The notes: generated by a model from the sequence alone, not told the origin. Shown: positions 457 to 9,176, counted from the stretch's first letter. The stretch: 64,000 nt of DNA from an uncultured Alphaproteobacteria bacterium (GCA_963827545.1 CAWHBI010000048.1:43665-107664), one strand, 5' to 3'. Made by a program: numbers and translations.

Positions 457-1308
457 GTGAGCAACGCGGCACAGCCCACGCGGAACTGCCACCAGAGTGC
501 GACCCTGCAGGCCCGACGGCTGGCCGCCGTGGCCTCCATGACGGTCATGATGCTCGCTTTAATGGCTGCGGATGCCGCGCACGAGCAAGCAACGGCGGAG
601 CCACCCACCATAAGCATTGCCGCCACGATCCTCGCCGAGTCGCCTGGGCAGGTTGCCCTTCCCATTCGCGTCGGGCCTGCTTCGTCGATACCCCGCAACA
701 GCTTCCTGACGGTGCGCGGGCTCCCGTCGATAGCCGCATTGTCGGAGGGGTATGCGATTGCGCCCGGCTCCTGGGCTGTTCCGCTCAGTGCGCTGCCAGA
801 CCTCAAGGTCAAACTTCCCGTCGGCTTGACGGGCAGAGTGGATATCGTGGTCGCCCTGGTCGCAAAGGACGGGGCGGTATTGTTCGAAGCGAAGTCGGCA
901 CTCGTGCTTGGCGCGGTCGCGCCGGCAAGCGCACAAGCTCAATCCGATCCGCCGGCCCCCAAGGTCGGGGCTGGAGGCCCGCCGCTGGCATTGCCGAGCG
1001 AGGCATCGCGGTCTGTCATCCTTCCCCAGGATCGCGAGCGCGCGCTGAAGTTTTTGAAGAAGGGCGATGAAGAGATGGCCGCGGGCCTGGTTACTCCGGC
1101 CAGGTTGCTCTATGAGCGCGCCGCAGAACTGGGTCTTGCACAAGCCGCGATGGCGCTGGCTGCCACCTACGATGCCGCCGAGCTGACGCGCCCCCATTTG
1201 CGAGGCGTCCACCCGGATGCCAACGAGGCCAGGCGTTGGTACGAGCGTGCGCGGCAACTCGGCGCCGGGGACGCGGACCAGCGCTTGCAGCGGCTGGGCG
1301 CAAAGTAA
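457..1308 (+). CDS. Sel1-like repeat (TPR-type) protein with N-terminal hydrophobic signal/anchor
   Basis: 283-aa ORF. The N-terminus has a hydrophobic stretch (AAVASMTVMMLALMAADAA). The C-terminus has Sel1-like repeats (ARLLYERAAELGLAQAAMALAATY..., EARRWYERARQLGAGDA). Confidence 0.6.
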   Translation: MSNAAQPTRNCHQSATLQARRLAAVASMTVMMLALMAADAAHEQATAEPPTISIAATILAESPGQVALPIRVGPASSIPRNSFLTVRGLPSIAALSEGYAIAPGSWAVPLSALPDLKVKLPVGLTGRVDIVVALVAKDGAVLFEAKSALVLGAVAPASAQAQSDPPAPKVGAGGPPLALPSEASRSVILPQDRERALKFLKKGDEEMAAGLVTPARLLYERAAELGLAQAAMALAATYDAAELTRPHLRGVHPDANEARRWYERARQLGAGDADQRLQRLGAK

Positions 1309-1483: not shown

Positions 1484-3361
1484 ATGAACGAAAAGCAATT
1501 GCGTAGAGCCATCGAGCAGTTGCTCGAGGCACAGCCTGACAATCAGCGCCTGCGCGACAACCTGGAAGGGCTGTGCCGCGACCCGCTGTTCCCCGGTCTG
1601 ACATGGTACTGGGGCCCGCGGCTCCATGCCCGCAGCAAGGCGGTGTTCCGCCCCTTCATTCTCAATCACTTTTCGGAGTGGATCACATCGAGCAACCGCT
1701 GGATCAGGGTAGCGTGGGCCGACCACGCCAACGATCTGGAGGCCTGGCTGCTGGCGGCGCGTGCCGGGCGGGACGGTGCCCTGATCCGGCGGCTGCAGCG
1801 CTGGAAGTACGCGGCCCGCAAGGGCTGGGGCATCGACCTGGACCGCTGGAACGCGGCACTGGTAGAGGCTTATCGGGCCGCACCCACGCCAGCTGCGCGC
1901 GCGATCGTTCTCGACGAGTTCGACGACTGGTTTCAGCTCGACGAGCCCACCGCGATCCGGCTTTACGACACCGATCGCAGCTCGGCGGCCTTCATTCTAA
2001 AGCATCTCCCCGTCTCGTTCTGGAGCCAGGAAAAGCGGGCGATGTGGGAGAAGCTCGGCGCGCTTGCCCGCGCCCACGGCGACGAAAAGCTGTTCTTCGC
2101 CCTCTACCGCAAGCTGATGCCGGTGAGCCGCTGGGAAACGGAGGTGCTGACCCTTGCCGACGCGGTTGTCGAGCAGGCCGAGCTCAATCGCGTGCTGGAG
2201 AACCGCCATCTGGAGGGCTACGGCATCGAGCGGGGCGGCACGGTCCTGAAGCTGCTGGAGCGGCGCGGCCGGGACGTGATGCCCTACGTGCGCGCCAAGC
2301 TCGAGGAAACGATCGGCGGCTGGGGTAAGGACAAGGAGGCGGCGTCCTTTATCGATCTTGCCGAGCGCCGGGGCTGGTGGGACCTCTGGAGCGCTGCGGC
2401 GCGGACCGCCACCTATCCGAAGCTGTTCAACGAGTGCGTCCGCAAGCTGATGCACAACCAATCGCTCGGCGATGATGTGCGCCGCGAGCGTCTGACGGCG
2501 CTGGCTGGCGTCTCGCGCGAGTGGAGCTGGCCGGGCCTCGGGCTGGCCCGCATCCACGCCCTGGACGATGATCTTGCCGGCCTCGTCTATGCCCGCTATC
2601 CGGATCTGATCCGCGGCCCCTTCCGCGCCAACGTCACTCCGACGTGGTGGCACGGCTATCCAAATCTCGTCCAGGCGGCGCAGGTGGCCCATGACGACGA
2701 TCTCCTCGACACGCTGGCCAGCCGGTACGCGACGCGGATTTCCTGGAAGCGTATGTGGAATCGCGACGAGAAGCCCGATGCGGAGGACAAGACGGCATCC
2801 GAGATTGCCGCCTACTACCAGGCCATCCGCGATCGCGACGCTGTGGAGTTCTCCCGCCGCGCCTCCAATGTCCTGACGCGCATTCCCGCCTATGCGACCT
2901 TCAACCAGCATCAGCTCTTGCGCACCAACGACTTGGCGCGGCTGCTGTTCGTGCGCTCGCTCGACCAGTATCTCGCGGTGCCGCTGGCCGTGCAGGACCT
3001 GGTGGAAGGCTCCAACATCCACGTCATGATGCTGGCCTACCGCGTTCTCGCGCTCCCCGATGCGCGGGCCCGCGCGCTGGCAGCCGACAACGTCGACATT
3101 CTGCTCGGCACGCTGCTGCGGCCGCTGCATCGCAAGACCCGGATGGCGGCCTTCGAGGCGCTCGCCAATGCCGCGCGGCACAGCGAGGCGGTCGCCCGGC
3201 GCATCCACGCCCGGGCCCGCGAAGCCTTGAAGCTGCCCGACAAGAAGTATCCCAAGGCCGAGCTGATCGGCCTCATCGGCTGCACTCTCGCCGCGCATCC
3301 TGGCCTGGCGACCGAGGCCGAGCGGCCGGTTGTCTACCGGCACGCGAGGGCCGCCGCATGA
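1484..3361 (+). CDS. Large alpha-helical repeat (ARM/HEAT-like) protein, first gene of the RT module
   Basis: Long ORF in frame with the 1217..3361 track entry. I chose the ATG at 1484 (MNEKQLRRAIEQLL...), but the RBS is weak and the start is uncertain (alternative ATG at 1385). The C-terminal third reads as helical repeats (LLGTLLRPLHRKTRMAAFEALANAARHSEAVARRIHARAREAL). Its stop TGA (3359-3361) overlaps the next ATG (ATGA). Confidence 0.6.
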   Translation: MNEKQLRRAIEQLLEAQPDNQRLRDNLEGLCRDPLFPGLTWYWGPRLHARSKAVFRPFILNHFSEWITSSNRWIRVAWADHANDLEAWLLAARAGRDGALIRRLQRWKYAARKGWGIDLDRWNAALVEAYRAAPTPAARAIVLDEFDDWFQLDEPTAIRLYDTDRSSAAFILKHLPVSFWSQEKRAMWEKLGALARAHGDEKLFFALYRKLMPVSRWETEVLTLADAVVEQAELNRVLENRHLEGYGIERGGTVLKLLERRGRDVMPYVRAKLEETIGGWGKDKEAASFIDLAERRGWWDLWSAAARTATYPKLFNECVRKLMHNQSLGDDVRRERLTALAGVSREWSWPGLGLARIHALDDDLAGLVYARYPDLIRGPFRANVTPTWWHGYPNLVQAAQVAHDDDLLDTLASRYATRISWKRMWNRDEKPDAEDKTASEIAAYYQAIRDRDAVEFSRRASNVLTRIPAYATFNQHQLLRTNDLARLLFVRSLDQYLAVPLAVQDLVEGSNIHVMMLAYRVLALPDARARALAADNVDILLGTLLRPLHRKTRMAAFEALANAARHSEAVARRIHARAREALKLPDKKYPKAELIGLIGCTLAAHPGLATEAERPVVYRHARAAA

Positions 3362-4956
3362 TCGTGCTCGTCGACTATGCCTCGCCCTCGGTGCTCGAAT
3401 CGACGCGCGATGCGACGACGGTCGGCCTGTCGACCAACCTGCGCCGGCGCGTGCGCTTCCATGGCCTCGTCCGCCAGCACGGCTTCATCCTGCGCATTGC
3501 GCTGCGGGCGCTGGGCGAGGCGATCTGGTCGAACGACACGTGGATTGCCCAGTCCGACCTGCTCGATCCCGTCATCACCGTGCATCGCGACCGCATCTTC
3601 TTCGAGGCGTTCAGCCAGGACCAGTCCACATACGTGTCGCTGATCGTCGACCCGGCCGTGTTCGAGCCCATGGGCGAGGTGGTGACCGGCACCACCAACA
3701 TCGACTTCACGGCTTGGCTGTGGGGTGCGCTCGGCGAGATGCGCACCAGCCGCTCGACCACCTTCCGCATCGGCCCTGAGGGCGTGGAGGTTCGCACATC
3801 GAGCGCCGGCGGCCGCTTCGAGAAGAAGGTCGAGCTGCCGGAAACGTGGGTGCGCGGCTTCCTGCAGGTGCAGGCCGCCATGGGCATGCCGGGCACCCGC
3901 ATCGCCGTGAAGCCGATCGATCTCTTGTCCGCGGTCCGCTTCCTGCGCCACTCCAAGGCCAAGGTTTCTCCACGCGGCATCCGCTACGAGTTCGAGCCGG
4001 GACAGGATGCCCGCCTCGTGCTCGAGCCGTGGGAGCGCGTCGTTCCCCTCGAGGGCGCGGAGCACAACTACACCGAGCCCAAGACCACCCGCGTGTGGGG
4101 GCGCCGCCGCCTCAAGCTGATCGAGGGCCTGCTGCCGTTCGCCGAAGGCGTCGACATCTATCTGAAGGGCCGGGCGCTGCCGAGCTTCTATGCCGTAAAG
4201 CTGCCGGGCATGACCTTCCTGCTCGGGCTCACCGGCTGGTCCGGCAGCGGCTTTACGGGCACCGGCGGCTTCGACCTGCTCGCTGAAGCCGCAGCCGCCA
4301 ACGACAACCTGCTCGAGCCGGCCCTCGCCCTGCTGCGCGAGCGCCAGCACGCCTCCATCGAGGACGTCGCCACCGCTCTGCACATCGATAAAGTTGCAGC
4401 ATCTCGCGTGCTCGTGCGGCTGTGCCGGCAGGGCCGCACCATGTTCGATGTCGAGGCGCGGCGCTACCGCCACCGCGAGCTGTTCGAGATGCCGGCCGAC
4501 GAGGCGACATACTTTCCCCCCGACCGGCGGCAGGAGCTGGCCGCGGCACTGATCGCCGAGAACAAGGTGCGCGTCGCGAGCTGCGCCGCAGAAGAGACCA
4601 AGAAGGTGCGCTCCTTCAAGGACCCCAACTCGGGCGAGGCCAAGCAGAAGATCGTGCGCGAGATCACCTATCGCGACTGGCGCATCATTGGCGCGGCCGG
4701 GGACCAGGATCCGGTCGAGATCGTGGTCAACGACACGGGCCGTATCATCTTCGGCCGCTGCACCTGCCCGCATTTCGCCGAGCACCTGATGAACCAGGGG
4801 CCATGCGAGCACATGCTCGCGCTGTTCAAGGCCAGCGAGGAGCAGCGCGCCGATCGCCCCTCGAGCTCACCGGTCGACAGCCCAACGACCGCCACGACAC
4901 GCAAGCAGCCGTCACGCTGGGAGGTTGACGGCGCCGAAGCAGGGGCGTCAGAATGA
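3358..4956 (+). CDS. Winged-helix + SWIM zinc-finger domain protein, second gene of the RT module
   Basis: ATG at 3358 overlaps the upstream stop (ATGA coupling). The C-terminus carries a SWIM CxCxnCxH signature (CTCPHFAEHLMNQGPCEHMLALF). This is preceded by a winged-helix-like segment (IEDVATALHIDKVAASRVLVRLCRQGRTMF). Confidence 0.8.
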   Translation: MIVLVDYASPSVLESTRDATTVGLSTNLRRRVRFHGLVRQHGFILRIALRALGEAIWSNDTWIAQSDLLDPVITVHRDRIFFEAFSQDQSTYVSLIVDPAVFEPMGEVVTGTTNIDFTAWLWGALGEMRTSRSTTFRIGPEGVEVRTSSAGGRFEKKVELPETWVRGFLQVQAAMGMPGTRIAVKPIDLLSAVRFLRHSKAKVSPRGIRYEFEPGQDARLVLEPWERVVPLEGAEHNYTEPKTTRVWGRRRLKLIEGLLPFAEGVDIYLKGRALPSFYAVKLPGMTFLLGLTGWSGSGFTGTGGFDLLAEAAAANDNLLEPALALLRERQHASIEDVATALHIDKVAASRVLVRLCRQGRTMFDVEARRYRHRELFEMPADEATYFPPDRRQELAAALIAENKVRVASCAAEETKKVRSFKDPNSGEAKQKIVREITYRDWRIIGAAGDQDPVEIVVNDTGRIIFGRCTCPHFAEHLMNQGPCEHMLALFKASEEQRADRPSSSPVDSPTTATTRKQPSRWEVDGAEAGASE

Positions 4957-4965
4957 GTTCTCTTT

Positions 4966-5132
4966 GCGCAGTTCCCGGGTCTGGCAGGACCTTCCAGCTT
5001 CCTATGCCACGGTGCTTCGCCGTGGCGGCTTCCTGTCCCCATCACATCGCCACGGTTCCCCACGTACGAAACGCGGGGAGGCCACGGGTCCAAAGCCTTG
5101 TTGGTGGTTGGCCGGCCGGCCCGGGACTGCGC
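4966..5132 (+). ncRNA. Candidate retron msr-msd non-coding RNA, bounded by a1/a2-like inverted repeats
   Basis: GCGCAGTTCCCGGG (4966-4979) pairs with CCCGGGACTGCGC (5120-5132), giving 13 bp with one bulged T. The enclosed ~140 nt contain hairpins at 5006-5026 (7-bp stem GCCACGG/CCGTGGC) and 5057-5079. The heptamer GCCACGG occurs three times (5006, 5049, 5081). The element sits between the SWIM-gene stop (4956) and the RT start. It is structural inference only. Confidence 0.35.
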
Positions 5133-5163
5133 CCTTGCCCGAAACGGCAGGATGGGTGAGGCG

Positions 5164-6510
5164 ATGCCCCCAACGCCGCTCCTGGTCTACCTCGCGGTCG
5201 GCTTCCTCGTGTTCATCCTGGCGCGCGCGCTCGTGCGCTGGGTGCGGCGGCGCATTGTGCTCAGGAAATGGGCAAAGGCTCCGCAGCGCGATGTGTCCGG
5301 GTTGGCTGATACCGGTGAAGCCGCCTTCAAGCGTGAGGTCGTCAGGACTGGCGGTCCGCTCAAGCCGGGGCACCGCCGGCTGGTGCTGCGCGACAACCGT
5401 CTGCTGCCCAAGCCGCCGCCGGACCCCAACCAGCGCCGCTGGCCGCCGCCGCCCAAGGTCAAGTACCTGACCGAGCGCGAGGCCGACCGGCTGTTTGGCC
5501 CGTCCCTGCGCACGCGCAACCGCGACGTGATGGACCTGGCAACCGACGAGGCCCAGCTGCAGCGCTACGGCCTGCCGGCGTGGAAGACGGAGCAGGACAT
5601 CGCCGCGGCCTTGTCGCTGTCCATCGGCCAGTTGCGGCACATGAGCCAGCACCGCCAGCGCGAGACTGTGCCGCATTACGTCACGTTTGCGATCCCGAAA
5701 CGATCGGGGGGCGAGCGCCTGATCTACGCGCCGAAGCGCCGCCTCAAGACAGTCCTCCGCGCGCTCGATCGATTGCTCGTGTCGAAGCTGCCGAAGAGCG
5801 AGCAGGCGCACGGCTTCGTCAAGGGCCGCTCCATTGCGACCAATGCCGCCCCGCATGTGGGCAAGGCCGTGGTGCTGCACTTCGACATCAAGGACTGTTT
5901 CCCGACCATCCACTTCGGCCGGGTTCGCGGGCTGCTGATCGCGCTCGGATACAGCTATCCCGTGGCAGCATCGCTTGCGGTCCTCATGACGGAGGCGCCG
6001 CGCCAGCCCGTGGCCGCGGAAGGGAAGCTCTATCATGTGCCGACGGGGCCCCGCGTCTGCGTGCAAGGCGCGCCGACAAGCCCAGGGCTGTGCAACGCCA
6101 TCTTGCTGCGCCTCGACCATCGCCTCTCGGGGCTGGCCCGCAAGCACGGCTTCGCCTACACGCGCTATGCCGACGACCTGACTTTCTCGGGCAACGACAC
6201 GGCGAAGATCGCCAAGCTCTTGAAGCTCGTGCCCACCATCGTCGCCGCCGAGGGCTTCGCCGTGAACGCGGACAAGACCCGAATTTTGCGCGCTGGCCGG
6301 CGCCAGGCCATCACCGGCGTGGTCGTGAACAAGGCCATGGGCCTGTCCCGCAAGGAGCGACGCAAGCTGCGCGCTGCGCTGCATCGCCAGAAGACCACTG
6401 GCGAGGCCGGCGCGGGCGAGCGCCTTCGCCTGCACGGCAAGCTGGCCTACCTGTTCATGCTCAACCGCGCACAAGCCATGGCCTTGGGCTGGCAACGGCC
6501 GTCGAGGTGA
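5164..6510 (+). CDS. Retron-type reverse transcriptase with N-terminal transmembrane helix and a ~170-aa extension
   Basis: RT motifs: GFVKGRSIATNAAPH (NAxxH), VLHFDIKDCFPTI, VCVQGAPTSPGLCN, YADD (6166-6177), ADKTRIL and RQAITGVVVN (retron-like VTG region). The N-terminus LLVYLAVGFLVFILARALVRWV is a predicted TM helix. The start is ambiguous (TTG 5098, ATG 5152, ATG 5164). Confidence 0.85.
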   Translation: MPPTPLLVYLAVGFLVFILARALVRWVRRRIVLRKWAKAPQRDVSGLADTGEAAFKREVVRTGGPLKPGHRRLVLRDNRLLPKPPPDPNQRRWPPPPKVKYLTEREADRLFGPSLRTRNRDVMDLATDEAQLQRYGLPAWKTEQDIAAALSLSIGQLRHMSQHRQRETVPHYVTFAIPKRSGGERLIYAPKRRLKTVLRALDRLLVSKLPKSEQAHGFVKGRSIATNAAPHVGKAVVLHFDIKDCFPTIHFGRVRGLLIALGYSYPVAASLAVLMTEAPRQPVAAEGKLYHVPTGPRVCVQGAPTSPGLCNAILLRLDHRLSGLARKHGFAYTRYADDLTFSGNDTAKIAKLLKLVPTIVAAEGFAVNADKTRILRAGRRQAITGVVVNKAMGLSRKERRKLRAALHRQKTTGEAGAGERLRLHGKLAYLFMLNRAQAMALGWQRPSR

Positions 6511-7381: not shown

Positions 7382-7942
7382 GTGAACGCCTACGCTGCAA
7401 CCCCTGAGAGCTTCCCGGCACTCGTGCTCAACGCCGACTTCCGACCCCTCAGCTATTACCCGCTGTCGCTGTGGAGCTGGCAGGAATCCGTAAAGGCCGT
7501 CTTCCTCGAGCGAGTGAACATCGTCTCCGAGTACGACCGCTTCGTGCGCAGCCCCTCTTTCGAGATGCGCCTCCCCAGCGTGGTGTCCCTGAAGACTTAC
7601 GTGAAGCCGGCTCTCTATCCCGCTTTCACGCGGTTCAATGTGTTCCTGCGCGATCGCTTCACTTGCCAGTATTGCGGGTCAAAGGACGACTTGACGTTCG
7701 ATCATCTGCTTCCGCGCTCGCGCGGGGGGCAGACACGCTGGGACAACGTCGTAGCGGCCTGCGCCCCGTGCAATCTGCGCAAGGGCGGCAACCTGCCAGA
7801 CCACGGTGGCATGCGCCCGCGGCAACTGCCGTACCGACCGACCGTGTTCGAGTTGCATCGCAACGGGCGGCTCTTCCCGCCCAACTACCTGCACCAGAGC
7901 TGGCTCGACTATCTCTACTGGGATACCGAACTGGAGCCGTAA
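7382..7942 (+). CDS. HNH endonuclease family protein
   Basis: CQYCGSKDDLTFDHLLPRSRGGQTRWDNVVAACAPCNLRKG matches the HNH/zinc-finger signature. GTG start. Confidence 0.8.
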   Translation: MNAYAATPESFPALVLNADFRPLSYYPLSLWSWQESVKAVFLERVNIVSEYDRFVRSPSFEMRLPSVVSLKTYVKPALYPAFTRFNVFLRDRFTCQYCGSKDDLTFDHLLPRSRGGQTRWDNVVAACAPCNLRKGGNLPDHGGMRPRQLPYRPTVFELHRNGRLFPPNYLHQSWLDYLYWDTELEP

Positions 7943-8016
7943 GGTATTGGTGCGCAAGTGCTTCTGGCCTCCAGCTGCTCGGAGGCCAAAATACGTTTGT
8001 GCTGGTGGGAGTGCGT

Positions 8017-8226
8017 TCAGGCTGCCTTGCGTTGCTGTGGGGTGCACAGGGCCTGGGCAATGCGATCGACGGCCGTACCCCAGCCGGCGCCCTCAGCGCC
8101 ATCCAATCCGAATGCGCTCAGCGCCCCGGCGGGTGTGCCGCCATCGCGGAAGATCCGGGCACAGGCAGCGCGTGCGTAACCAATCGCCTGCTCCCATTGC
8201 ACAGCATTGATATGGCGGGGGAACAT
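8017..8226 (-). CDS. Small hypothetical protein (69 aa)
   Basis: Internal ATG of ORF 8017..8352, preceded by a good RBS (GGAGAAGGGAAACAC-ATG). I recognise no family. Confidence 0.4.
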   Translation of the reverse strand: MFPRHINAVQWEQAIGYARAACARIFRDGGTPAGALSAFGLDGAEGAGWGTAVDRIAQALCTPQQRKAA

Positions 8227-9176
8227 GTGTTTCCCTTCTCCGTTTCTGTCTGCGCCTGACGCTACGCACCGATGCCGAAGCGAGGGTGGCAGGCGCATCC
8301 AACGCAACGGCTTCCCGACGCAAAACCTTGACTCGTGAAGCCTGTTCGACATGCCTGTCGCGCGTTAGATGCGCCTGCCGCTCGGACGGCCAACGGGCCA
8401 ACGACGCTGGCCATCCTAAGCCTTTACCTGCGACGCCCCTCCCGACTTGGGGCCGTTTCGAATTTGGGCCGGCACTGGAAGTGAACACAACACCCGGCCA
8501 ACCACCTCACTCAACGCATGCCACTCTGCTTCTTCCGACTCGACCATGAACTTTGCCTGGGTTGGCCCTCCGCGAGGGCGGCGAGCCGCCCGGCGACACG
8601 CGCGCACTTTTTCGCCTCGGCGGCCCGCCGCAATGCCTCGAATGCGGGGGCAAGAGCTACTCTGGGACACGCACGCAACTGAGACTCTGACGCGAACACG
8701 GCACGCACGCCACGCAACGGACCGACGCCAACATCACGCCACTCACGCACACCGGCTACTCGAACACTATTTTTCTGAACGCTACTCACTGGGACCCCAC
8801 TTGACCGGAACCGCGAATCATCCCTGGAGAACGCGCGACGACCGGATCCAATTGCACCACCAACTGTGGATAACTCAGATCGTATGCAACCCGCAGGGTA
8901 ATCGAGGGCAGGCGGTGTCGAGACTCCACTGGAAGGCATATCGAAACTCCGCGCACCCTGCCGTTAACCAACTCTTAACTGATCGTTCTCTTTGCGTTCC
9001 CGGCTGAGGGGCAATTAACAGCCAGACCTAGTCGCTTTTGGGGCACAGAAGGGGCGAGAAGACGGTAGGGCCCGGTTTTCCAAAAGTAATTTTCTTGACA
9101 GAAGGCTTTCGTGACTCGCGCGTCTGCAAAGTGATTCGTACCTGTTGTGTGTGTCGCTGGTGTGTAAATTTTGCGA

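Follow-up and report, generated by a model that had tools for sequence, protein, structure and literature searches.

A predicted Mx65-variant retron of type XIII in an uncultured alphaproteobacterium

Gene layout and assignment to retron type XIII

Near one end of a 64,000-nucleotide (nt) stretch of DNA from an uncultured Alphaproteobacteria bacterium (GCA_963827545.1, CAWHBI010000048.1:43665-107664), referred to below as the window, three co-directional genes lie on the plus strand with a noncoding RNA (ncRNA) gene between the second and the third. Judging from the sequence, these four parts almost certainly make up a retron of type XIII, complete and intact and of the Mx65 structural variant; as such, it is a genetic unit built around a reverse transcriptase (RT) and the multicopy single-stranded DNA (msDNA) that it would produce. 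The first gene, g1 (1484-3361), encodes a 625-amino-acid (aa) accessory protein predicted to be a HEAT/ARM-like alpha-solenoid; the second, g2 (3358-4956), encodes a 532-aa protein with a SWIM zinc finger; and the third (5164-6510) encodes a 448-aa retron RT. The end of g1 and the start of g2 overlap by 4 nt (ATGA, 3358-3361). A model reading the sequence alone had already described such a tight three-gene unit (the original prediction), and calling of open reading frames (ORFs) recovered both the genes and the overlap. Public gene calls have identical lengths (625, 532, and 448 aa for g1, g2, and RT). The window has about 67% G+C and is crowded with spurious overlapping ORFs, so ORFs by themselves are weak proof of coding; however, same-length homologs of all three proteins occur in the same order at more than 100 independent loci, indicating that the three genes are real and go beyond chance.

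Several searches place the RT in the type XIII clade. Of the 68 RT models in PADLOC, RT_XIII gives the best score (1.4e-128, 427.9 bits; runner-up, 292 bits), and the top 25 matches are retron RT models throughout; membership in RT clade 10 was assigned by this hidden Markov model (HMM) score. PADLOC is also the program whose use on the RT was proposed with the original prediction, and it points to a type XIII retron and not to group II or DRT enzymes. Homologs of the RT are 447 to 451 aa long and align with 98 to 100% coverage. Pfam finds an RVT_1 domain (2.3e-19), and the best matches among PDB sequences are the retron RTs Ec86 (1.9e-36, residues 131-416), Ec67, Ec78, and Eco8, with a group II maturase at 7e-4. 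The three motifs that had been taken earlier as marks of a retron RT are all present, namely the catalytic YADD (6166-6177), the NAxxH motif of region X within GRSIATNAAPH (5824-5856; NAAPH, 5842-5856), and the VTG motif of region Y within RQAITGVVVN (6301-6330; ITGVVVN, 6310-6330), and the HMMs and PDB matches agree with that reading. With g1, g2, ncRNA, and RT all in place, the reading frames unbroken, and the YADD, NAxxH, and VTG motifs retained, the locus is intact.

An RT of another class (group II intron, diversity-generating retroelement, or Abi/UG-DRT), or a decayed remnant of a module, would account for the generic RVT_1 domain and for nothing else at this locus. All NCBIfam scores fall far under their cutoffs (group_II_RT_mat, 57.8 against 300; Drt2, 30.4 against 390; Drt4, 19.7 against 450; Drt3a, 15.5 against 200), Rfam detects no group II intron RNA in the window, and the leading PADLOC and PDB matches are retron RTs. 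Decay fits poorly with intact frames, with catalytic and retron-specific motifs in place, and with an ncRNA that scores 214.8 bits. We regard both versions of this alternative as extremely improbable.

The type XIII assignment also rests on gene order. A scan of a genome collection seeded with an RT alignment yielded 78 loci, whose gene order was read by tblastn. The genes g1, g2, and RT are colinear at about 55 of them, most of the others being cut by contig ends. Colinear loci are found in Alphaproteobacteria (Hyphomicrobiaceae, Micropepsaceae, and Rhodomicrobiaceae), Planctomycetota, Verrucomicrobiota, Myxococcota, Acidobacteriota, and Eremiobacterota/Vulcanimicrobiota, and the nearest named relatives of the window belong to Hyphomicrobiaceae. 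Metagenome loci seeded with g2 show the same arrangement, with g1 directly upstream at all 64 loci that have room for it and RT downstream at 53 of 53. Synteny with RT homologs, another check suggested at the outset, is therefore positive in both directions, and the order g1-g2-ncRNA-RT is obligate. The exception is a beta/gammaproteobacterial subgroup (L033, L035, L039, L042, L043, L048, L050, L052, L059, L063, L067, and L075) in which ncRNA and RT are accompanied by a g1-like gene and g2 is missing; its g1-like protein matches g1 over residues ~120-620 only, at about 31% identity.

Type XIII had already been named in the original prediction, and the family HMMs, the two-way synteny, and the ncRNA covariance model described below uphold it. 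The type includes the earliest discovered retrons, which date from 1984. It was defined in 2020 and comprises Mx162, Mx65, Sa163, and Ne144 (Mestre 2020, PMC7736814, Table 1); the same census reports that the RT and the ARM protein of type XIII have coevolved, and a 2026 preprint survey (SPIRE) places the type third in abundance among retron groups and lists many representatives from Pseudomonadota. Because Mx162, Mx65, Sa163, and Ne144 belong to it, msDNA production by type XIII is experimentally established. The original prediction was aware of no experiments on this class, which does not hold for msDNA and does hold, in the literature searched, for effector mechanism and defense. What is new here is one further member of a type that is already catalogued and common in this clade.

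The ncRNA and its predicted msDNA

The spacer between g2 and RT is 207 nt long (4957-5163), and the z-score of its minimum free energy (MFE) is -3.6; not one of 200 shuffled sequences folds equally well. A structured spacer of about 200 nt had been noticed before; it can now be identified as the msr-msd gene, and a covariance model together with covariation delimits an ncRNA of 167 nt on the plus strand (4966-5132), of the Mx65 structural variant. A sigma-70-like promoter, TTGACG-18-CAGAAT (4925-4954), may lie 12 nt upstream of it; this is a consensus match only, one of 2 promoter-like sites found between 1200 and 6800, where 0.3 are expected.

The two ends of the ncRNA form a 13-nt inverted repeat (4966-4978 and 5120-5132), which the MFE fold extends to a stem of 31/28 nt between the a2 arm (4966-4996) and the a1 arm (5105-5132). 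The arms vary in sequence, with 0 of 28 columns at least 90% conserved, and every pair of helices 1 to 4 covaries. At the inner end of this stem, G4997 is unpaired in the context CC-A-G-C and stands opposite G5104. The AGC is kept in all loci, and the G aligns with that of GAGC in the Mx65-type locus of Myxococcus xanthus. Published retrons have their priming G at the inner stem end as well, within CAGC in Mx162 and Sa163 and within GAGC in Mx65 (Simon 2019). Position and conservation thus point to G4997 as the putative branching (priming) guanosine, and the locus combines the two general marks of a retron ncRNA, a1/a2 inverted repeats and a conserved G at the inner stem end. The msr hairpin that follows, GCCACGGUG-CUU-CGCCGUGGC (5006-5026, helix 6), shows 96.5% pairing, and in 4 of its pairs both partners have changed. 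The likely msd template spans 5037-5103, with boundaries transferred from the Mx65-type locus, and includes a conserved hairpin (5057-5079; helix 10, 93% paired). Across 70 distinct sequences from at least six phyla, 31 of the 67 template columns reach at least 90% identity. The heptamer GCCACGG occurs three times in the ncRNA, at 5006, 5050, and 5082.

A covariance model derived from five close relatives (R1) detects one ncRNA copy per locus in 73 of 79 sources, that is, the window (214.8 bits) and 72 of the 78 loci. The ncRNA is always on the RT strand, immediately 5' of RT and between it and g2 (or g1). R1 also finds it in 62 of 80 independent metagenome loci, the misses being contigs that end too early. 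Among the 70 distinct sequences, standard pairs fill 87.5% of cells, compared to 40 to 45% when the partners are slid by 1 to 3 columns, and compensatory double changes number 636 cells versus 194 +/- 14 in shuffles. No Rfam family matches the ncRNA, either at the gathering thresholds or at E <= 10. RNAalifold on a plain MAFFT alignment recovered the outer 14 a1/a2 pairs alone, missing the inner ones because the inner arm has indels, and the covariance model recovered the stem. Helices 7 to 9, a basal msd stem in the MFE fold of the window, were dropped, being 69 to 81% paired with many broken cells.

By homology with the Mx65-type locus, the predicted product is an msDNA of about 67 nt that would be complementary to 5037-5103 and read, in reverse orientation, CAACAAGGC...GATGGGG, attached to an RNA part of about 49 nt (4994-5042), and termination would occur near 5037. 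Folded as DNA, this predicted msDNA is no better than shuffles (z = -0.5), and for that reason no long msd hairpin is claimed. Homology to the Mx65-type locus makes it likely that the locus produces msDNA.

A locus of M. xanthus AM003 (L032) connects the window with Mx65 (Retron-Mxa2). It encodes a 636-aa g1, a 532-aa g2 (with a 4-nt overlap), a 174-nt ncRNA with GAGC, and a 427-aa RT with GAAPH, and it therefore shows the marks that Simon 2019 assigns to Mx65: GAGC, a 427-aa RT, and N-to-G in NAxxH. Its order of ARM/HEAT protein, clamp-like winged-helix SWIM protein, ncRNA, and RT is that of the window, the identities being 63% for RT, 57% for g2, and 40% for g1, and the PADLOC models score as they do in the window (438 bits for its RT on RT_XIII). 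The covariance model of the window clade matches the ncRNA of L032 over its full length (76 bits, E = 1e-14); the two RNAs align helix for helix and have the same hairpins and the same TGTCCCCATC stop region. Through this match, the ncRNA of the window falls into the Mx65 variant among the four described for the type (Firmicutes, Mx162, Mx65, and Ne144). The opposing G residues are 104 nt apart in L032 and 106 nt apart in the window. The 104-nt span is what 65 nt of DNA and 45 nt of RNA give once an overlap of 6 nt is subtracted, assuming an Mx65 RNA that we take to be 49 nt long with its branch at residue 4. The two systems differ in priming context (GAGC in Mx65 and CAGC in the window) and in region X (GAAPH in Mx65, whereas NAAPH is intact in the window). 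The Myxococcus RT starts with a short amphipathic segment, MSWFDTALSRLKGLF, and the RT of the window with a transmembrane-like helix. The host of Mx65 is Myxococcus and its msDNA has 65 nt, compared to an alphaproteobacterial host and a predicted msDNA of about 67 nt for the window.

Mx162 (Retron-Mxa1) and Sa163 (Retron-Sau1) likewise belong to type XIII and RT clade 10 (Mestre 2020, PMC7736814), and, like the window, they combine CAGC as the priming context with a long a1/a2 stem and an RT whose N terminus is extended (Simon 2019). Mx162 differs by its 241-nt precursor and 162-nt msDNA (Simon 2019), compared to 167 nt for the ncRNA of the window; Mx162 was compared by its published description, as Mx162-type loci did not turn up in the pattern-based scan.

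Partner proteins and the N-terminal extension of the RT

The most conserved of the three proteins is g2, the "primary" associated protein of type XIII (PADLOC SWIM_XIII, 2e-142). Its homologs, of about 530 aa, number in the thousands. In 51 sequences with identity down to 44%, 99 columns are at least 97% conserved; identity is 70 to 97% among many environmental lineages and 68 to 72% between Alphaproteobacteria and Planctomycetota. An AlphaFold2 (AF2) model built on a 33-sequence alignment (predicted local distance difference test score [pLDDT], 74; predicted template modeling score, 0.75) divides the protein into three: residues ~30-295 form a double domain, ~306-372 a winged helix, and the C-terminal remainder, rich in beta structure, contains the SWIM finger.

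The double domain (3445-4242) is predicted to resemble a PCNA/sliding clamp. Foldseek returns 461 PDB matches at E < 1e-3 for it, nearly all of them PCNA or beta clamps (best, 2ix2_C, E = 7e-9; target TM, 0.6 to 0.72), and a search of the viral BFVD library again returns PCNA and beta clamps. The predicted likeness is to the two-domain fold of a clamp protomer (E = 7e-9 to 1e-7). In contrast to PCNA and beta clamps, with which it shares about 10 to 14% identity in structural alignments, the module is fused to a winged helix-turn-helix (wHTH) and a SWIM finger and carries an invariant acidic cluster that is atypical of clamps. No similarity to clamps was found by phmmer or profile searches of PDB sequences, no Pfam clamp domain was recognized, and hhalign of the two halves of the module detected no internal repeat. 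Because sequence-level clamp similarity and an internal repeat are both lacking, g2 is kept out of the PCNA family, and its N-terminal module is, on this model, clamp-fold-like. Clamp domains rarely show a detectable internal repeat, and the hhalign result is thus neutral.

Another reading starts from the acidic residues. D70, D78, E83, D88, D116, and E127 are invariant in the clamp-like module, and E155 is at least 80% conserved. In the 2020 census, the acidic residues of g2-type proteins (cluster 114) are read as a transposase-like DEDE motif, a transposase origin is suggested for cluster 114_1, and D70, D78, E83, D116, and E155 of g2 fit the quoted pattern Dx7Dx4Ex30-32Dx37E (Mestre 2020, PMC7736814). 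The protein g2 would then be a transposase-derived DEDE/DDE-like enzyme and the module a mobile element, or derived from one, a reading that also suits the difference between the flanks of the window and those of close relatives. However, two independent structure libraries relate the predicted fold to PCNA and beta clamps and not to RNase-H-like transposases, and no transposase family of Pfam or NCBIfam matches. Terminal inverted repeats, tRNA, and integrase genes are absent from the window, the conserved DNA ends about 140 nt 5' of g1 on one side and at the RT stop codon on the other, and the module is single copy at every locus. We consider a transposase-derived g2 very unlikely.

Downstream of the clamp-like module, the AF2 secondary structure (H-H-H-E-E) predicts a wHTH at residues ~306-372 (4273-4473). 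A weak profile match of residues 321-371 to an IclR wHTH is all that sequence and profile searches of PDB gave for g2, homologs carry ArsR/MarR labels in their source databases, and a DprA-like winged helix has been described in this part of the SWIM protein (Mestre 2020, PMC7736814). The SWIM finger, CxCx12CxH (C468, C470, C483, and H485; CTCPHFAEHLMNQGPCEH), was located by regular expression at 4759-4812 and is supported by Pfam (E = 3e-5), all four ligands being at least 97% conserved. A SWIM motif behind a winged-helix-like segment is what had been seen originally. With its DEDE residues, winged helix, and C-terminal SWIM, g2 has the composition that defines cluster 114 of type XIII.

The maximal ORF of g1 begins at 1217, and the start at 1484 was chosen since homologs are about 625 aa long; 373 homologs were found, nearly all of 620 to 630 aa. 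The AF2 model (pLDDT, 88) is an all-alpha solenoid of 39 helices, in line with the helical-repeat protein of about 625 aa proposed at first, and Foldseek relates it to generic ARM/HEAT solenoids only. No match to g1 was found in Pfam, NCBIfam, or PADLOC (also at E <= 10) or in PDB by sequence or profile, and a Pfam scan of its N terminus gave nothing significant. PADLOC does not detect the M. xanthus homolog of g1 either, indicating that its silence reflects a missing model and not divergence. As a solenoid gene just upstream of the SWIM gene, g1 corresponds to the HEAT/ARM component of type XIII; it is placed in this class overall and not in one of the census clusters (216, 259, 1688, or 3262). 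The region 5' of g1 (1342-1483) is about 74% identical to the DNA just upstream of g1 in two relatives (L026 and L025), is the sole conserved flanking DNA, and may serve as a promoter or 5' leader of the g1-g2 pair; a scan for consensus sigma-70 promoters found none within it.

The RT has an N-terminal extension of about 130 residues. It begins with a hydrophobic, transmembrane-like helix predicted at residues ~5-24 (5176-5235; Kyte-Doolittle means over 19 residues, 2.0 to 2.6), and a basic stretch comes next. RTs of the alphaproteobacterial clade (L001-L012, L014, L017, L025, L026, L066, and L073 were compared) keep this hydrophobic property but not the sequence, with an ATG just upstream, whereas RTs of other phyla, including M. 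xanthus, begin with the short, conserved amphipathic motif MS[LF].DW[LI]KSLFG..RD[VI]SRL. This pattern suggests that RTs of the alphaproteobacterial clade may be membrane associated via the N-terminal helix, a feature that the text of the 2020 census does not mention. Further into the extension, the motif R72..R76-D77-x-R79-L80-x-P82-K83 (RD.RLLPK, 5377-5412) is at least 97% conserved in 54 RTs. All 8 sampled loci with g2 have it (once as HD.RLLPK), and it is absent from the readable RTs of the g2-less beta/gammaproteobacterial loci, where long Pro/Ala-rich inserts are found. The motif thus tracks the presence of g2 and would fit a g2-docking role, a correlation that is confounded by phylogeny because the g2-less subgroup is a single clade.

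The retrons with solved structures, Ec86 (II-A), Ec78/Ec83 (I-A), Ec67 (I-C), and Eco8, share with the window the RT core and the logic of ncRNA, RT, and partner protein. Their partners are unrelated, as effectors of the NDT, PtuAB, Toprim, or OLD type are missing from the window, and the extension of about 130 residues is extra in the RT of the window compared to theirs. Sequence and profile searches of PDB with g1 and g2 found no solved type XIII component.

Genomic surroundings and possible function

The proteins flanking the module in the window have no counterpart near any related retron. Genes downstream encode a carboxylesterase, a stand-alone HNH endonuclease, hydrolases, MFS transporters, BcsS, a Usp protein, and a formyltransferase, and no tRNA or Rfam family was found across the 64-kb window. 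The module had been described as embedded in the chromosome away from any island. The absence of tRNA and integrase genes from the window stands; embedding is judged from 1.4 kb of upstream DNA, and the evidence from flanks is mixed. Within other alphaproteobacterial subclades (L006, L008, L009, L011, and L017; L012 and L014), flanks are common to the members. The overall picture is one of vertical persistence inside clades and of relocation or transfer between clades.

The HNH gene (7382-7942, plus strand; 186 aa; Pfam HNH, 2.4e-13) lies about 870 nt 3' of RT and is probably unrelated to the module, since it is not found beside any related retron. Between it and the next hydrolase gene, about 1.2 kb (7943-9170) contain no recognizable gene, with G+C dipping to 0.56 to 0.60 and a strongly negative GC skew at ~8250-9000; small ORFs there have no Pfam match, and Rfam gives a 17-bit chance match only. 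The upstream neighbor of g1 (457-1308, plus strand; 283 aa) has a weak C-terminal Sel1-repeat match below the Pfam cutoff and is not conserved beside related retrons. In some related loci (L056, L055, L064, L073, L046, and L057), the spacer between g2 and ncRNA has grown from about 10 nt to 0.3 to 1.5 kb; the insert of about 1.5 kb in L056 has two near-identical hairpin-forming units of about 55 nt (...AACCCGGAGCCAACGGCGACGGCGTTCGCTTTTCCTG.CAGAACGGTCGCCGTCG...) resembling a small repeat element. The closest genome relatives, L010 and L026, are long-read metagenome-assembled genomes with split or truncated tblastn matches to g2 and RT (in L010, g2 from residue 150 and RT from residue 104; in L026, RT residues 5-291 only), suggesting frameshifts that are either assembly indel errors or retron decay. 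A scan of viral contigs with g2 patterns found no relative.

Overall, the locus is probably best explained as a type XIII retron in which RT-msDNA, g1, and g2 act as one unit, most likely as a phage guard. The proteins g1 and g2 would be translationally coupled through the ATGA overlap, and ncRNA and RT may be transcribed from their own promoter at 4925-4954. Once folded, the ncRNA (4966-5132) would set G4997 opposite G5104 through its long a2/a1 stem, and the RT would prime on the 2'-OH of G4997 and copy the RNA, starting at about 5103 and ending near 5037, to yield an msDNA of about 67 nt branched onto an RNA of about 49 nt. The RT-msDNA particle would act jointly with g2 as a nucleic-acid-binding protein and with g1 as a HEAT/ARM scaffold, and the partner proteins would be set free or activated once msDNA or RT is disturbed, by analogy with studied retrons. 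A joint complex of RT-msDNA, g2, and g1 is likely. An anti-phage output by abortive infection is suggested by the same analogy, and we put it at slightly less than an even chance.

Several observations weigh against a role in phage defense. Across phyla, both g2 and the msd sequence are under very strong purifying selection, which fits such a role poorly, as do the conserved flanks in some subclades, and a signal of vertical inheritance has been reported for type XIII (Mestre 2020, PMC7736814). The metabolic neighbors in the window are ordinary, with no defense-island signal or island marks. Neither g1 nor g2 has a toxin or enzyme domain in searches of Pfam, NCBIfam, PADLOC, and PDB (sequence and profile). 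The original prediction had seen no enzymatic toxin domain, which holds at the sequence level; to this can be added the predicted clamp module with its invariant acidic cluster in g2. Because the partners lack a recognizable toxin or enzyme domain, the usual toxin/antitoxin-like logic of retrons may not apply. The literature searched contains no report of defense or an effector mechanism for a type XIII retron, a 2024 experimental census preprint mentions neither type XIII nor Myxococcus, and a search on retrons with PCNA and SWIM gave nothing relevant beyond known papers.

An alternative is that a type XIII retron making msDNA has been domesticated for DNA or chromosome housekeeping, for instance with the clamp-like g2, including its wHTH and SWIM finger, loaded onto an msDNA of conserved sequence or guided by it. 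The 2020 census suggests that some retrons may be domesticated and reports for type XIII a moderate correlation with 16S and vertical inheritance in myxobacteria (Mestre 2020, PMC7736814). The flanks shared within the two alphaproteobacterial subclades, the identity of g2 across environmental lineages (70 to 97%) and between Alphaproteobacteria and Planctomycetota (68 to 72%), and the 31 of 67 msd columns conserved in at least six phyla point the same way, such conservation being unusual for components in an arms race. So do the missing toxin domain, the metabolic neighbors, and the absence of homologs from viral contigs with the patterns used. Against domestication, the flanks of the window are not shared even with relatives at 87 to 93% identity in the retron proteins, which fits mobility or rapid turnover of the neighborhood. 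We know of no obvious growth or developmental defect in Myxococcus mutants with msDNA deleted, and to our knowledge, which includes the Millman 2020 preprint, every retron type tested acts in defense. The spread over distant phyla (genome scan; SPIRE preprint) also implies horizontal transfer at some depth. Domestication is therefore, in our judgment, unlikely though worth keeping in mind beside a phage guard.

A more specific proposal, which we consider rather improbable, departs from toxin/antitoxin-like logic altogether: g2 would be a PCNA-like clamp fused to wHTH and SWIM domains, the RT would be docked to it via RD.RLLPK and held at the membrane, and g1 would be the HEAT scaffold. The clamp would be loaded onto the sequence-conserved msDNA or gated by it. 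A transmembrane helix would keep the RT at the membrane in the alphaproteobacterial clade, and an amphipathic helix would do so in other groups. If this were true, the oldest retrons would be a membrane-associated, clamp-based DNA-surveillance machine, and a first mechanistic handle on the function of Mx162 and Mx65 would be at hand.

The locus is ordinary in itself and matters for its class, type XIII, to which the oldest retrons belong. It offers three leads: a strict four-part module, an msDNA sequence conserved across phyla, and a predicted clamp fold in g2 together with a probably membrane-directed N terminus of the RT. These leads are predictions, and they concern the class as a whole more than the window. 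They could open the 40-year-old question of what Mx162 and Mx65 do to experiment.

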